A DNA stretch of 45,201 nucleotides from Escherichia phage PC2: the sequence record NC_073088. One strand, 5' to 3'. Shown here one piece after another: positions 2,293 through 44,193 of this stretch; within the stretch, counting starts at the first letter, position 1; each line of letters opens with the position of its first letter. Both the position numbers and the translations under genes were made by a program. Under the pieces are notes generated by a model, which was given only the letters and a program-made list of their open reading frames with translations, was not told the origin of the DNA and did not search any database.

Positions 2293-2570
2293 TGACACCA
2301 GAAGGCAAGGTCCAAACTCACTTGATGAGACGGGTGAAAGAGGTTGGCGGATTCTGCCGTAAAGTGGCGTGGGAGGGGCGCGCAGGTGCGCCCGATCTGA
2401 TCATCATCATCAACGGCAAGATAGTTTTCGTCGAAGTGAAGCGCCCAGGCGGTAAACCTAAGCCGCACCAGGTACGAGAACATGAGCGAATGGCCCGCCG
2501 CGGTGCGGACGTTCGCGTTATCGACAGCATAGCCGACTGTGATTTATTGGTTGCTGAATTGGTCGCGTAG
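2292..2570 (+). CDS. VRR-NUC family nuclease (PD-(D/E)xK fold)
   Basis: 92 aa; motif GAPDLIIII...VFVEVKRPGGKP (D...E.K); start ATG overlaps polymerase stop (TAATG); AGGA upstream. Confidence 0.7.
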   Translation: MTPEGKVQTHLMRRVKEVGGFCRKVAWEGRAGAPDLIIIINGKIVFVEVKRPGGKPKPHQVREHERMARRGADVRVIDSIADCDLLVAELVA

Positions 2571-5502: not shown

Positions 5503-5507
5503 ATTGG

Positions 5508-5536
5508 TTGCATAATCATATTGGTTGCATTATATT
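5508..5536 (+). promoter_or_regulatory. Sigma70-type promoter (TTGCAT-N17-TATATT) with two TTGGTTGCAT copies
   Basis: Hexamers read directly; TTGGTTGCAT at 5504-5513 and 5521-5530. Confidence 0.55.
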
Positions 5537-5538
5537 TA

Positions 5539-5563
5539 GGGTGTCCGGTCGGACGCCCTTTTT
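5539..5563 (+). terminator. Terminator-like hairpin plus T5 tract overlapping the start of the 5508-5536 promoter transcript
   Basis: GGGTGTCCG..CGGACGCCC followed by TTTTTAAT, 20 nt before the RBS of ORF 5583. Confidence 0.5.
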
Positions 5564-6724: not shown

Positions 6725-7191
6725 AATTATTGATTTGCGATTTGGATGGCGTTATTAACGGTTCAAGCGATGCGCGTGCCGACCTGGTACCTGGGATAAA
6801 AACTAAATCCACCTTTTGGGCGAAGTGGCACAAAGCGCACGTCCGCGAAGACCTGAACATGGATATGCTGCCGTTGTTGCGCATGTATAAAGAGCAAGGC
6901 TTCGAGATCGCGTATCTGACCAACCGGCAGCGTGAATGTTGGGACACCACCGCGGAGCAATTGAAGGTCTTCCCAGTAGGCCGGTTGTTTATGCGCCACA
7001 TGCTGGACGACACCCCGCCGCCTGAGTTTAAGGCGTGCGCCGTGTTCAAAATGGTCTGTTACGCGGACGTGTCTGAACTGGTCATCATTGAAGATTGCGA
7101 GAAGAACATCGCGGCAATTCGTCGGGTGTGTGGTGATTTGGTCCCGAAAATTTACGCAATAAACGTTGCAAAATTCACTTGCAACCAATAG
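6721..7191 (+). CDS. HAD-superfamily phosphatase-like protein (possible polynucleotide 3'-phosphatase or nucleotidase)
   Basis: N-terminal HAD motif I LICDLDGVI; ATGA overlap with upstream stop. Confidence 0.55.
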   Translation: MKLLICDLDGVINGSSDARADLVPGIKTKSTFWAKWHKAHVREDLNMDMLPLLRMYKEQGFEIAYLTNRQRECWDTTAEQLKVFPVGRLFMRHMLDDTPPPEFKACAVFKMVCYADVSELVIIEDCEKNIAAIRRVCGDLVPKIYAINVAKFTCNQ

Positions 7192-7208
7192 GTTGGTTGC
7201 ACTATAGT
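7179..7208 (+). promoter_or_regulatory. Sigma70-type promoter (TTGCAA-N18-TATAGT) containing a 9-bp-arm palindrome
   Basis: TGCAACCAA-TAGG-TTGGTTGCA at 7180-7201 lies in the spacer; overlaps the HAD gene stop. Confidence 0.5.
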
Positions 7209-7254
7209 AAACGTGTCGGGGGCAATACAGCCCCCTCACTAAAAGGGTAATACT

Positions 7255-10884: not shown

Positions 10885-10904
10885 AGCTAAATCCTCGTAA
10901 TTGG

Positions 10905-10932
10905 TTGCATTCCTGGTTGAGCGGTGTAATAC
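10905..10932 (+). promoter_or_regulatory. Candidate promoter (TTGCAT-N16-TAATAC) for the lipoprotein cassette
   Basis: Preceded by TTGGTTGCAT (10901-10910). Confidence 0.45.
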
Positions 10933-21104: not shown

Positions 21105-21270
21105 CAGTCTCAGACGAGGGGGGCCAATGACCCCCGTCTAGTCTGAAAGACTGGGCTTTGTCCCGCCTGTCCCGATCGGCTAAAACCAGCGGCAGCACTG
21201 GCGGGGACAGGGGTGCTGTCCCGCTTTGTCCCGACCCATTCTGTCCCGCTTTTTGTCCCGCTTACTTTAT
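21105..21270. repeat. Copy A of the 166-bp GTCCCGC-repeat / hairpin element
   Basis: Aligns block-for-block with 38166-38331; contains the perfect palindrome GCGGGACAG-GGGTG-CTGTCCCGC and six GTCCCG units. Confidence 0.85.
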
Positions 21271-21300
21271 GCACGAAAACTGAATAGATATTCACATTTT

Positions 21301-21430
21301 GGGGGCGGGACAGATCGGGACAGCACCCCTGTCCGCTTTTAATTTATGCAATGCTGGTGGGTAAATATGCAGTTTTTAAAGGTGCGGGATAGAACGGGAC
21401 AAAACGGGACGTCCCGCCTGTCCCGCTCCG
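21301..21430. repeat. Second cluster of GGGACA / GTCCCGC units adjoining copy A
   Basis: GGGCGGGACAGATCGGGACAGCACCCCTGTCCGC and GCGGGATAGAACGGGACAAAACGGGACGTCCCGCCTGTCCCGC; in inverted orientation to the copy A units, across an AT-rich spacer (about 21271-21300). Confidence 0.7.
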
Positions 21431-26897: not shown

Positions 26898-26986
26898 GCT
26901 ATCCCCCTGGGATTGTGGCAAAGCGGGCCACCCGCTTGACTTCACGCCTTAATATTATCAGCGATAAAAATAATCGCAAAATTCGC

Positions 26987-27016
26987 TTGCATTGCGAATG
27001 TTGGTTGCAGTATATT
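26987..27016 (+). promoter_or_regulatory. Sigma70-type promoter (TTGCAT-N18-TATATT) for the moron cassette, with overlapping palindrome
   Basis: Hexamers read directly; ATTGGTTGCACACCAAC at 27014-27030 overlaps the -10; AT-rich upstream region. Confidence 0.55.
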
Positions 27017-27051
27017 GGTTGCACACCAACAGAGATATGAAGGAAGACAAA

Positions 27052-27366
27052 ATGACTAACATGACCGTAGCAACTCCAGTAGACGCCGCAATGGCCCGTT
27101 TCAATAAAGCTACCGTAGCGAATACCTTTACCTTTCACGCAATGCGTAACGCGGAAGCGCTGAATCTGTGCCAGAGCATGAATGCTTCTGAAGCGGCAAA
27201 AGCGGCGATCAACTCCGCGATATTCGATAATCCGGCTTGCGGCCTGGTTCCGGCATCTTTCATAAACGCCCTGGTCGAAGCCTTTAACGATTTCATGTGC
27301 GTCGATGCCGTTGAAGCTGTATGTGCCCGCTTAACTTCCACCGGTGGCAACATCAAATTCAACTAA
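27052..27366 (+). CDS. Hypothetical protein, moron gene 1
   Basis: 104 aa; RBS GAAGGAAG; own promoter 26987-27016; plus strand inside the minus structural arm. Confidence 0.5.
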   Translation: MTNMTVATPVDAAMARFNKATVANTFTFHAMRNAEALNLCQSMNASEAAKAAINSAIFDNPACGLVPASFINALVEAFNDFMCVDAVEAVCARLTSTGGNIKFN

Positions 27367-27420
27367 ACCAATCGGGGGCGAAAGCCCCAATAATGAGGAC
27401 ACAAAAATGAGGACACAAAA

Positions 27421-28185
27421 ATGAGACTGACAAAAGACATTAAAAATCAGATTCTGGCTAACATCCTGCGCGACCACGAAATCGCAACCGAAGCCAAACA
27501 AATCATGATGGACTCACGCGACATGGCGTACGCAATCACGCTGGACTGTATGCCGGACGGCATTCGCACATTCGCCGCGCTACGCGAGCATATCCTGTTA
27601 ATCCGCGATGACCAGTCGCAGATGTACGGCGTCAGCATATACACCAACAAGGCGACGTATAGTTATAACTCCGACCGCCCGAAGGGTATCGGCAGCGTCT
27701 ATGACGCCACCTTTGAAATCAACGCAGGCGGCAATGTTCGCACCTTGTCATTGAGCGGCGACGGTCGCCAACACCGCATACATCGCGGGTACTGGGAAGA
27801 GAAATATATGAATAAGCTCGCGCCTGATCTCGGCGATATCGTTCCGGGGTTCGAGACAGTTATGCTCGCGTCAGTGTGCGAAGTGGACGAGGACGGGAAA
27901 GCGCTGCCGATATATCTCCCACGCGGTCGCGTAGACTACCCAGCGGATCATGATTTCTGTAAGCGCCTGGACCGTAACGACCAGGCCCGCCGCGAGTTGC
28001 GCGCGAAGTATGACGCGTTCAAACTCACCGTTACCGGTGTACTTGACCTGCACAATACTGACAAGAAGCTGATTAAGGCATGGCCTGAAGTCGAGCAATT
28101 CATCCCGTACCCGGACAAGCAAAAATCCACGGCGGTGGCGCTGGATGTGAAAACACTCAACGAGATTTGCGGCATTCCGCGCTAA
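27421..28185 (+). CDS. Hypothetical protein, moron gene 2
   Basis: 254 aa; no motif recognised; followed by a hairpin at 28191-28211. Confidence 0.55.
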   Translation: MRLTKDIKNQILANILRDHEIATEAKQIMMDSRDMAYAITLDCMPDGIRTFAALREHILLIRDDQSQMYGVSIYTNKATYSYNSDRPKGIGSVYDATFEINAGGNVRTLSLSGDGRQHRIHRGYWEEKYMNKLAPDLGDIVPGFETVMLASVCEVDEDGKALPIYLPRGRVDYPADHDFCKRLDRNDQARRELRAKYDAFKLTVTGVLDLHNTDKKLIKAWPEVEQFIPYPDKQKSTAVALDVKTLNEICGIPR

Positions 28186-34706: not shown

Positions 34707-34829
34707 GTATGGCGGCGGGCTATATCAATTCGCAAATAACCATGCCGATAAAAGCCGCGGTGGTCCAGATCGCTAATACCCAAATATCATTACGTGCCAT
34801 CTTGATTACTCCTCTCGTTGATTGGTCGC

Positions 34830-34859
34830 AGTATGGCGTCTATGTTGGTTGCGAGTCAA
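34830..34859 (-). promoter_or_regulatory. Candidate sigma70-type promoter (TTGACT-N18-CATACT) for the mini-ORF / HTH-phosphoesterase operon
   Basis: Minus-strand hexamers read directly; immediately downstream of the terminator at 34868-34895. Confidence 0.35.
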
Positions 34860-37347: not shown

Positions 37348-37613
37348 TTGCTCAGTCTCCAGTGTTTGCCTACCCGCTCGACTGCGGGCTTCCGGCGTAA
37401 TGTAATACGGATGCCAATTGGTTGCAAGGACGTTTTTATGGCAAGTCCATGCTCCCTGGCGAACTGGTGCAGATAGCGAGTCTGCGTTAATGGCTTCACA
37501 TCGTCGCGATAGCACCAGAACACAGAATCGCCCTCAACCGCATTCTGCGCCCATATTCGTATGCAATGCAGTGGAATATGCCACGAAAGCTGTTTAGCTC
37601 GTCTGCGGTCCAT
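37344..37613 (-). CDS. Hypothetical protein
   Basis: 89-aa ORF in a chain of coupled early genes. Confidence 0.4.
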   Translation of the reverse strand: MDRRRAKQLSWHIPLHCIRIWAQNAVEGDSVFWCYRDDVKPLTQTRYLHQFAREHGLAIKTSLQPIGIRITLRRKPAVERVGKHWRLSK

Positions 37614-37949: not shown

Positions 37950-37977
37950 TGTTCAGTCCTCTTGTTGGTGTGCAACC

Positions 37978-38006
37978 AATCTAGCAGGATGCTGGCATGA
38001 ATGCAA
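37978..38006 (-). promoter_or_regulatory. Sigma70-type promoter (TTGCAT-N17-TAGATT) with an overlapping palindromic operator
   Basis: Minus-strand hexamers read directly; palindrome GTTGGTGTGCAACCAAT at 37964-37980 overlaps the -10; two TGCAACCAA copies at 37971-37979 and 38002-38010. Confidence 0.55.
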
Positions 38007-38165
38007 CCAATATTAATCACGCGTATGAAAAAGTTGATCGCTATCTGCTGTGACTGCAAACTGCATTTTTCACACCCCATTCTGCAACTCGCATTGGTTG
38101 CCTAGTTCAGCGACGACCGCGATTTACAATGTGCTGCCGTGTATTATGCAATCCCGGATTTTATG

Positions 38166-38331
38166 CAGTCTCAGACGAGGGGGTCAGTTGGCCCCCGTCT
38201 AGTCTGAAAGACTGGGAGTTGTCCCGCCTGTCCCGCTCCTCGCCAGGCCGCGTCATCCGGGGCGGGACAGGGGTGCTGTCCCGCTTTGTCCCGCCCCTGG
38301 TCTGTCCCGCTTTTTGTCCCGCTTACTTTAT
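38166..38331. repeat. Copy B of a 166-bp GTCCCGC-repeat / hairpin element
   Basis: Aligns with 21105-21270: identical blocks CAGTCTCAGACGAGGGGG, CCCCCGTCTAGTCTGAAAGACTGGG, TTGTCCCGCCTGTCCCG, GCGGGACAGGGGTGCTGTCCCGCTTTGTCCCG and CTGTCCCGCTTTTTGTCCCGCTTACTTTAT, separated by divergent spacers. Confidence 0.85.
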
Positions 38332-38372: not shown

Positions 38373-38420
38373 GGCAACCAATGCGACCAGATAAAAACGC
38401 TCAAAATGGCAACCAATGCG
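38373..38420. repeat. Direct repeat of GGCAACCAATGCG (two copies, 22-bp spacer)
   Basis: Copies at 38373-38385 and 38408-38420, just downstream of the primase-helicase stop. Confidence 0.6.
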
Positions 38421-40703: not shown

Positions 40704-41033
40704 TTACTTAGAAGTTTTATTATTGCGTACCCAGGAGCGCACTGTGCTCTGATTAATTCCGGTCAACTCGGCAATCATTGCCCAGGATTTTCCCTCGGCG
40801 CGCAAACGGATAACCTGTTTTTTGTATTCTTCCATTTCTTCATTGTGCTTTTGCAGCTTGCTGGCTGCCGTACCGTTGAGCAATTCCAGCCTGGCGCGTA
40901 ATTCTTTTTCTACACTGCGCAGGCGCTCGACCTCAAATAGCACCGCCCCCACGGCATCGGTATAAGCCCATGACCGGCTTGTTTCACTGCTAACAGTCTT
41001 CGTTAACATTTCGATTGCGTCGTTTACATTCAT
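40704..41033 (-). CDS. Transcriptional regulator with C-terminal helix-turn-helix
   Basis: 109 aa; coiled-coil N-terminus; C-terminal HTH (GKSWAMIAELTGINQSTVRSWV); RBS GAGGG; first gene after promoter 41065-41093. Confidence 0.55.
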   Translation of the reverse strand: MNVNDAIEMLTKTVSSETSRSWAYTDAVGAVLFEVERLRSVEKELRARLELLNGTAASKLQKHNEEMEEYKKQVIRLRAEGKSWAMIAELTGINQSTVRSWVRNNKTSK

Positions 41034-41046
41034 TGCTCAGCCCTCA

Positions 41047-41063
41047 GTTGGTTAATGACCAAC
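41047..41063. promoter_or_regulatory. Palindromic operator candidate GTTGGT-TAATG-ACCAAC at the start of the regulator transcript
   Basis: Perfect 6-bp arms read directly; related palindromes at 37964-37980 and 27014-27030 overlap two other promoters. Confidence 0.5.
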
Positions 41064-41093: not shown

Positions 41094-41212
41094 ATCCTTT
41101 GGATATTGAAACGGGCGCGCACGCGTGTAATAATAATAATTCCCGTCTCATTGTCTCTTATTGGTTAGCGCCGTCGCATTTTGCTTCGGCGCTTTTTTTT
41201 TAAAATTAGTTG

Positions 41213-41241
41213 TTGACTCCCTTCTGCAACCAATCTAATAT
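41213..41241 (+). promoter_or_regulatory. Sigma70-type promoter (TTGACT-N17-TAATAT) with upstream T/A-rich tract
   Basis: Hexamers read directly; T9 tract and AAAATTAG at 41194-41210; drives the plus arm. Confidence 0.6.
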
Positions 41242-44103: not shown

Positions 44104-44193
44104 CCGCTTAGGCGCAACCAAGTAGATCGGCAACCAAGCCGAACGGGGTGGCTCACAATAACCCCGATACATGTGAAAATGAGGAATTGGAAA

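Follow-up and report, generated by a model that had tools for sequence, protein, structure and literature searches.

A conserved 10-bp promoter motif of Escherichia phage PC2, a candidate operator of a phage-encoded helix-turn-helix regulator

Introduction

In phage lambda, the small helix-turn-helix (HTH) proteins Cro and CI act on multiple related operators in OR and OL, which lie over the -35, spacer, -10 and +1 elements of promoters that include the regulator's own, and some of which are dyad-symmetric. The p4 protein of Bacillus phage phi29 represses early promoters and activates the late promoter of a lytic phage, and the MotA box of T4 replaces the -35 element in middle promoters, where it keeps one fixed position and orientation and needs AsiA. 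Here we describe an asymmetric 10-mer, ATTGGTTGCA, in Escherichia phage PC2 (NC_073088), whose 45.2-kb sequence (45,201 nucleotides, hereafter the window) is the complete genome of a Dhillonvirus (HK578/EP23/SO-1-like), a lytic siphophage of Escherichia coli. The 10-mer is restricted to promoter regions, and we lean towards reading it as the recognition sequence of a phage-encoded, autoregulated global regulator, most probably an HTH protein of 109 amino acids (aa) encoded in the same genome. Dhillonviruses are common coliphages that are used in the BASEL collection, in studies of defence systems and in phage engineering. The literature searched on Dhillonvirus promoters or transcriptome, on the motif and on the genomes yielded no description of promoters, motif or regulator; the general kind of circuit, a phage HTH regulator with its operators, is known, and the one outlined here is not yet described for the genus. 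A 10-bp operator and a candidate regulator, together with a map of around a dozen promoter modules, would make a cheaply testable model of the order of gene expression in a small lytic siphophage that depends on the host polymerase.

The arrangement in the window shares with lambda the features listed above, including the site in the regulator's own promoter. It differs in that the phage is strictly lytic, without CI, integrase or immunity region; in that at least 11 promoters around the genome carry sites, whereas lambda has two tripartite operators; and in that most of them are single asymmetric 10-mers in either orientation. Furthermore, the HTH of the candidate regulator is C-terminal, follows a helix of ~58 residues and scores below the HTH_3 cut-off. 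With phi29 p4 it has in common a small lytic-phage regulator on host-polymerase promoters, whose outcome could depend on site position, but the two proteins are unrelated in sequence and fold, p4 works at a single divergent promoter region and not across the genome, and activation is only a possibility here. As with the T4 MotA box, a phage-specific motif would replace a poor -35 element before a good -10 element in four forward copies, but it is also found in the spacer and at +1, in both orientations, and no MotA- or AsiA-like protein was found by Pfam.

Results and Discussion

An over-represented 10-mer at promoter regions

The gene map of the window was transferred from the annotation of phage vB_EcoS_011D5 (011D5), nearly all of whose proteins map onto it, and a 6-kb stretch of the window is 90-93% identical to many deposited genomes. 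Conservation was examined in a close set of 15 IMG/VR relatives plus 011D5, and in a distant set of four syntenic metagenome phages (L035, L037, L039 and L175) with ~71% DNA identity over the alignable part. The most over-represented word in the genome is the 10-mer ATTGGTTGCA, with the core TTGGTTGC. At ≤1 mismatch it has 16 copies, 13 of which lie in intergenic DNA (7.6% of the genome), two in the last bases of genes bordering intergenic DNA, and one in a doubtful open reading frame (ORF). There are 16-19 copies in all, at 11 of the 14 promoter-like regions mapped (named as in Table 1). The word TTGGTTGCA has 11 exact occurrences and 25 at ≤1 mismatch against 12 expected, a number that none of 100 shuffles reached, and ATTGGTTGC is the commonest 9-mer of the genome (13 copies). 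Sequences flanking the copies are mutually unrelated, and the copies occur in both orientations relative to promoters. A scan of a viral collection for paired 10-mers was non-specific, with ~80 chance matches estimated and most matches being unrelated tandem arrays, and was dropped as a measure of co-occurrence.

The motif is conserved selectively. Over ten intergenic regions, the share of invariant columns is 82% within the motif and 65% in the rest of the intergenic DNA (Fisher p = 1e-7). The per-position conservation profile is highest at TTGGTTGC (0.95-1.00). In the close set the copies stand as invariant islands among flanks and inter-copy spacers that vary; at P5.5, for instance, the 7 bp between the two copies are variable and the copies themselves invariant. 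Sites also turn over. The relative L033 has a copy of opposite orientation in place of the -10-proximal copy of P7.2, and the P41.2 spacer of L035 carries two tandem copies compared with one here. In the four distant phages GCAACCAA / ATTGGTTGC still ranks first or nearly first among words, and copies are found at orthologous promoters. The occurrence in both orientations, the many copies upstream of the predicted start and the restriction to promoters indicate a DNA-binding protein, and the 10-mer is very probably a protein-binding regulatory element.

Three palindromes as special cases of the 10-mer

The initial annotation had taken as the recurring unit a 17-bp palindrome, GTTGGT-N5-ACCAAC, that overlaps the -10 or start region of three promoters, including that of the HTH gene. 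The three palindromes are indeed present (Table 1), and their exact core TTGGT-N5-ACCAA is far above chance, with 3 observed against 0.05 expected and none of 100 shuffles reaching 3. Scoring of the whole 17-mer with ≤2 mismatches allowed gave a count within chance (3 where 1.6 are expected, a number reached by 21 of 100 shuffles) and was replaced by that of the exact core and the 10-mer. The site at 37964-37980 is the exact reverse complement of that at 27014-27030, leaving only two distinct palindrome sequences. Hence the three do not count as independent cases: two of them are a single 17-mer in duplicate, and both of these contain the genome's most over-represented 10-mer. At the P_HTH position of the third palindrome the distant phages L035, L037 and L039 have the canonical TGCAACCAAT, with which it aligns position for position, indicating a degenerate 10-mer as its right half and an additional TTGGT as its left. 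The real unit is thus the asymmetric 10-mer, of which the palindromes are three special cases.

The proposed overlap with the -10 or start region is borne out by the site positions within conserved promoter modules, but it needs weak hexamers, and a strict sigma-70 scan called no promoter at any of the three sites. That one palindrome belongs to the HTH gene's own promoter is supported, and the site there is conserved in close and distant relatives; the palindrome as such is conserved in 13 of the 15 close relatives and has one mismatch in the remaining two. The 27014-27030 palindrome is invariant in 14 of 15 relatives, ahead of at least 5 different first genes, and the P27 module as a whole is present in all 15, before at least 5 unrelated ones. 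That at 37964-37980 is kept in relatives with single changes only (L013, L014 and L006).

Positions of the copies relative to predicted promoters

Copies were paired with the best -35/-10 hexamers and numbered from the -10 element; starts are predicted ones. They fall into three slots. The first (-40 to -31) holds forward copies only (P2.5, P5.5, P10.9 and P38.0), and here the motif's own TTGCAT or TTGCTG takes the -35 position with a 3/6 consensus match. The second (-23 to -14), which adjoins the -10 element, is occupied in either orientation, forward at P5.5, P7.2 and P27 and reverse at P41.2 and P44.1. The third (about -9 to +1), again in either orientation, is occupied at P27, P38.0, P34.8 and P44.1. 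Such discrete slots relative to the -10 element, filled in both orientations, fit protein operators but neither an RNA signal nor a promoter element of fixed orientation.

The promoters are supported by comparison among relatives, which keep the hexamers and the length of the spacer but are hypervariable in its sequence. This is clearest at P38.0, whose 17-bp spacer to TAGATT follows this pattern, and at P27. The strict sigma-70 scan (≥9/12 hexamer matches) detected five promoter-like sites clustered at 41.0-41.46 kb, where 0.5 would be expected. In 011D5, two tiny ORFs span the P38.0 and P27 regions, namely gp16 (37 aa; 37950-38059, minus strand) and gp36 (41 aa; 26915-27037, plus strand); the constant-length, hypervariable spacers of the relatives suggest that both ORF calls are spurious.

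Other kinds of element were considered for the 10-mer. The presence of both orientations, the copies 5' of starts and the promoter-only placement, taken together, ruled out an RNA-level signal as well as a Chi-like or packaging signal and a simple oriented promoter element. A reading with no dedicated binder takes the 10-mer as a promoter piece shared by duplicated modules, or as a -35-like TTGCA with upstream bases that is read by the host polymerase. It would explain the identical 21-bp block shared by P27 and P38.0 and the TTGCA(T/A) at the -35 position of 6 promoters, but we hold it to be very improbable: the flanks outside the 10-mer are unrelated, copies in both orientations lie in the spacer and at +1, where a -35 role is impossible, and TTGCAT matches TTGACA at 3/6 positions only. 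Moreover, the reverse copies, as read from the sequence, create no antisense promoters, and the L033 copy is replaced by an inverted one at the same place.

The 109-aa HTH protein

The initial annotation had named the HTH protein encoded at 40704-41033 as the obvious candidate for a dimeric repressor. Its candidacy stands in so far as it is the only protein with a recognisable sequence-specific DNA-binding domain among the small or unassigned proteins scanned with Pfam, and is present in every motif-bearing relative, including all the distant ones; a covariation test with the diverged homolog of L175 gave no signal either way. Phage records with the HTH protein (153), the P27 module (154) and the P_HTH module (149) have the same taxonomic spread.

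Residues 65-107 match the Pfam models HTH_23, HTH_28 and Sigma70_r4_2 above their cut-offs. The score of Sigma70_r4_2 (PF08281; 27.9 bits against a cut-off of 25.7, residues 65-103) agrees with a region 4.2 HTH, but HTH_23 and HTH_28 score equally well or better, indicating a generic HTH match. Weak matches to ECF sigma region 4 were obtained in NCBIfam, and no match to sigma region 2 was found (TIGR02937, 21.2 against a cut-off of 42.9, model positions 111-155 only). The Cro/CI-type HTH_3 model remained below its cut-off (E = 0.0037, 17.7 bits against 23), as did LuxR/GerE PF00196 (16.1 against 23.5 bits), and the AlphaFold2 model has no helix after the recognition helix. The Mu Mor/C family was not among Pfam-A matches at E ≤ 0.1, and the architecture of an N-terminal helical part and a C-terminal HTH is only loosely similar.

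The AlphaFold2 model (pLDDT 82) comprises, besides a short helix, a single helix of 58 residues and a compact HTH at the C-terminus. Foldseek searches of PDB and BFVD matched only this HTH, over 34-40 residues, to LuxR/GerE, IstA and resolvase HTHs (E ~1), besides the protein's own orthologue, and gave no other full-length structural analogue. The PDB match 8VD6 has no relevance, being a repeat protein designed de novo. The C-terminal ~40 residues thus resemble models and structures of sigma-70 region 4.2 and LuxR/GerE HTHs, but the HTH alone matches, without sigma region 2, the fourth helix of LuxR, or a receiver or ligand domain. The family is narrow, with 24 clusters at 90% identity and 3 full-length representatives among 1.84 billion proteins. 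In its alignment, the C-terminal 60 residues are essentially invariant and the N-terminal ~45 are hypervariable or replaced by unrelated sequence, a pattern that suggests diversifying selection on a surface that may meet the host or be sensed by defence systems.

Two annotations carried by relatives had no support. For lambda Gam ('DNA recombination nuclease inhibitor gamma'), no Gam model was found at Pfam E ≤ 0.1 and no sequence match in PDB. For transposase or resolvase (PHROG 9366), only the HTH part of this all-helical 109-aa protein matches, with IS630 and IS1 models at 16-19 bits against cut-offs of 100. The present analysis corrects the labels 'transposase', 'resolvase' and 'Gam', along with the calls of tiny ORFs over promoter regions. 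The HTH protein is distinct from two other Dhillonvirus proteins, Ksap1 (the KpAvs2 trigger) and anti-Tmn.

A possible circuit and its alternatives

The binder of the motif is probably the 109-aa HTH protein, by a circumstantial link, and we give an even chance to repression as its main effect, a sign that we infer. The HTH gene has an operator-like site in its own promoter, which is the layout of autoregulation, and repeated related sequences lie over the core elements of 11 promoter-like sites, which is the layout of a repressor and its operators. In the proposed circuit, the HTH protein would bind one or two copies in nearly every sigma-70-type phage promoter. Where a second, inverted TTGGT stands 5 bp away, giving the 17-bp palindrome, both HTHs of a coiled-coil dimer could contact successive major grooves; the palindromes would then be high-affinity dyad sites at P27, P38.0 and P_HTH, and the remaining sites would be 10-mers, singly or in pairs. 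A copy in the spacer (-23 to -14) or over -10/+1 would exclude or trap the host RNA polymerase. As it accumulates, the HTH protein would limit further expression of its own gene and lower the activity of the phage promoters, acting like Cro although the phage is strictly lytic.

Several observations weigh against such a circuit. At the 27.0-kb and 37.96-kb palindromes no promoter was called by the strict sigma-70 scan, so the slot assignments rest on weak hexamers and conservation. Copy spacings of 12-35 bp match no one fixed dimer geometry; many copies are single, form direct repeats at these distances or are oppositely inverted, an arrangement at odds with a dimer of simple fixed geometry on a palindrome. 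Repression of every promoter would leave late-gene expression unaccounted for. In the L175 homolog the recognition helix reads STIKNWIYR compared with STVRSWVRN, differing at 6 of 9 positions, yet the DNA motif is unchanged, which means that those residues do not set specificity or that another factor binds. Finally, four forward copies stand exactly at the -35 position of promoters whose -35 hexamer matches at 3/6, which looks more like activation.

The last point leads to the main rival, in which the same HTH protein is a dual switch that activates from -40 to -31 in place of the -35 element and represses from the spacer or +1 of promoters with a good -35, producing from one protein an early-to-middle/late switch comparable to phi29 p4 or to the replacement of the -35 element by the T4 MotA box. 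At -40 to -31, the sigma-region-4-like HTH would recruit or stabilise RNA polymerase as a class II-type activator. This would suit the forward orientation of all four copies in that slot, in 3/6 promoters (P2.5, P5.5, P10.9 and P38.0), and the presence of reverse spacer or start copies in promoters with 5/6 TTGAC(T/C) hexamers (P41.2, P44.1 and P34.8), as well as the above-cut-off Sigma70_r4_2 score with its weak ECF region 4 companions in NCBIfam, and the two P27 copies that also lie at -55 to -78 of a divergent structural-operon promoter. We regard it as unlikely, since in three of the four '-35' promoters a further copy lies closer to the start, where it is expected to block polymerase (P2.5 and P5.5, in the spacer; P38.0, over -10/+1). 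In addition, the HTH matches are generic, with HTH_23, HTH_28, transposase and LuxR models scoring similarly, and the protein has neither sigma region 2 nor a known polymerase-contact motif. In a wider and equally doubtful form of this idea, a single 109-aa protein with a sigma-region-4-like HTH would run the whole temporal programme of a lytic siphophage without a polymerase of its own, standing in for the -35 contact at promoters devoid of a -35 element (forward copies at -40 to -31) and blocking those with a good -35 from the spacer or +1, its own among them, with the fast-evolving N-terminus as a surface contacting host polymerase or targeted by host defence.

The unchanged motif of L175 would also suit a binder other than the HTH protein, either a phage protein of unknown fold (e.g., gp13) or a CytR-like or GntR/PdhR-like host factor. 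We judge this quite unlikely. The extreme invariance of the motif would be natural for a host factor, and gp13 and gp21, too, are kept in every distant relative, but no DNA-binding domain was found in the other phage proteins scanned. gp17 was rejected as an alternative regulator; it gave only an HTH_Tnp_4 match at 0.028 and is absent from the distant motif-bearing relatives.

The E. coli PdhR box is AATTGGTnnnACCAATT, with the essential core GGTnnnACC (PMC7660256). Its half-sites (ATTGGT / ACCAAT) are identical to those of the phage and likewise arranged as an inverted repeat, but the spacing here is N5 instead of N3 and most phage sites are without a second half-site. PdhR itself was rejected because it needs GGT-N3-ACC, whereas the phage has GGT-N5-ACC; for ATTGGT-N3-ACCAAT with ≤2 mismatches allowed, the window has a single, unrelated site where 1.4 are expected. 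E. coli CytR binds GTTGCATT octamers or TTGCA repeats, which may be direct or inverted with variable spacing, and adjacent CRP sites are required (PMC3454398). The octamer occurs inside three copies, and the phage 10-mer overlaps in its 3' part with the TTGCA/GTTGCA core, but the best-conserved bases, ATTGG, lie outside the octamer, the GCC/GCG variants break TGCA, and the phage sites have no flanking CRP sites. CytR needs these within ~5 bp, and the window has 8 CRP-like sites against 13 expected, the nearest being ~60 bp from any copy; this host factor was therefore rejected as well. For the preferred reading, an autoregulated HTH protein, the sites and promoters are collected in Table 1.

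Table 1. Candidate regulator gene, predicted promoters and motif copies in the window (promoter positions relative to predicted starts)
Feature	Position	Strand	Description
HTH protein gene, candidate regulator	40704-41033	-	109 aa; hypervariable N-terminal ~45 aa, long helix 22-79, invariant C-terminal HTH 84-107
Palindrome ATTGGTTGCACACCAAC	27014-27030	+	10-mer + ACCAAC; P27 -9 to +8; overlaps last 3 nt of -10 TATATT and predicted start
Palindrome GTTGGTGTGCAACCAAT	37964-37980	-	Same 17-mer; overlaps -10 TAGATT of P38.0, -9 to +8
Palindrome GTTGGTTAATGACCAAC (GTTGGTCATTAACCAAC on HTH strand)	41047-41063	-	Perfect; P_HTH -5 to +12; right half a degenerate 10-mer
P_HTH		-	TTGACA-17-TAGTTT; promoter of HTH gene
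P27		+	TTGCAT-18-TATATT; drives cargo gene 27052-27366 and Nmad5
10-mer copy GTTGGTTGCA	27000-27009	+	P27 spacer next to -10, slot -23 to -14; core conserved, rest of spacer varies
P38.0		-	TTGCAT-17-TAGATT; upstream of gp17 (37949-37623) and downstream minus-strand genes
10-mer copy	38002-38011	-	Its TTGCAT is the -35 of P38.0, slot -40 to -31
P41.2	41213-41241	+	TTGACT-17-TAATAT, strong promoter
10-mer copy, reverse	41225-41234	-	P41.2 spacer, slot -23 to -14; invariant in 15 relatives, both flanks vary
Copies CTTGGTTGCG and CTTGGTTGCC at P44.1, both reverse	44113-44138	-	P44.1 is TTGACC-17-TAGATC; spacer -22 to -13 and start -6 to +4; upstream of SSB gene
Degenerate copies ATTGGTCGCA and GTTGGTTGCG at P34.8	34821-34853	+	Reverse to minus-strand promoter TTGACT-18-CATACT; -7 to +3 and -30 to -21
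P5.5, two exact copies 17 bp apart	5503-5529	+	First: TTGCAT as -35, -40 to -31; second: adjoins -10 TATATT, -23 to -14
P7.2, inverted pair TGCAACCAAT-agg-TTGGTTGCA	7180-7201	.	TTGCAA-18-TATAGT
P10.9, single copy	10900-10909	+	-35 position of TTGCAT-16-TAATAC; upstream of lipoprotein gene
P2.5, copies ATTGGTTGCT and ATTGGTCGCG	2546-2567	+	-40 to -31 and -28 to -19 of TTGCTG-17-TATAGT; inside VRR-NUC gene 3' end
Single copy	37417-37426	+	Reverse over -35/spacer of minus-strand promoter-like TTGCAA-17-TACATT; inside doubtful ORF
Copy ATTGGTTGCC	38093-38102	+	Long non-coding region between helicase-primase gene and gp17
Two ATTGGTTGCC copies 35 bp apart	38373-38417	-	Directly 3' of helicase-primase stop codon; similar pairs in L035, L039, L175

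Other promoter regions

The minus-strand promoter at P34.8 precedes the phosphoesterase, terminase and portal genes, and an orthologous copy is retained in L035 and L037, which also have the orthologous copy pair of P2.5. The copy at 37417-37426 is invariant and lies on the edge of a region for which several haplotypes exist. A conserved promoter-like sequence on the minus strand at 26957-26984 (TTGCGA-16-TAATAT), with no 10-mer inside, faces the structural operon (gp37 through the tail genes); the position of the two P27 copies at -55 to -78 of this divergent promoter makes a coupling of cargo- and late-gene expression possible. Stable hairpins, all on the plus strand, begin where transcription from P5.5 (5538-5563), P7.2 (7215-7235) and P44.1 (44144-44166) is predicted to start, or just beyond that point. 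That of P5.5 is followed by T5 and would terminate upstream read-through, and transcripts initiated at P5.5 itself would hold only part of the hairpin.

Neighbouring elements

Behind P27 lies a cargo slot (27052-28185, plus strand), for which at least 5 unrelated first genes were counted among the 15 relatives (loci L040-L054); Nmad5 comes next here. In Dhillonviruses, Nmad5 has been reported to trigger the defence system Tmn (PMC11846954), and the slot is a candidate position for anti-defence genes. With its promoter/operator module placed before exchangeable cargo, P27 offers a natural regulated insertion slot for engineering.

A second repeat family, GCGGGACA, has 15 exact copies against 2.1 expected, in clusters at 38220-38322 and 21159-21426 and as singles at 206 and 2800. 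The first cluster is just 3' of the helicase-primase gene, and the second lies in a 394-bp unannotated gap between the tape-measure gene and gp46. The equivalent region of L175 carries GGGGTGCCA/TGGCACCCC repeats in place of GCGGGACA. These repeats look like origin iterons or sites of a second DNA-binding protein whose specificity, unlike that for the 10-mer, has changed. Between the GCGGGACA cluster and P38.0, a long conserved hairpin was found on the minus strand (38166-38214; CAGTCTTTCAGACTAGACGGGGG-loop-CCCCCTCGTCTGAGACTG, dG about -24), the loop of which varies between relatives.

A candidate small RNA of ~60 nt is located at 41106-41200 on the plus strand. Its promoter (TTGAAA-17-AATAAT with an upstream TG, 10/12) is the strongest sigma-70-like one in the region, and it ends in a hairpin and U9 terminator (41167-41200, dG -16.2, z -3.5). 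It is conserved in all relatives and contains ATTGGTTAGC, a relative of the 10-mer with 2 mismatches; an Rfam search of the window gave no match, for this candidate or otherwise. Lastly, the host labels of two related records look doubtful: OQ221563.1 and one further record, with ~93% identity to the window phage, are deposited as 'Acinetobacter phage NJ01' and as a Campylobacter phage, respectively.

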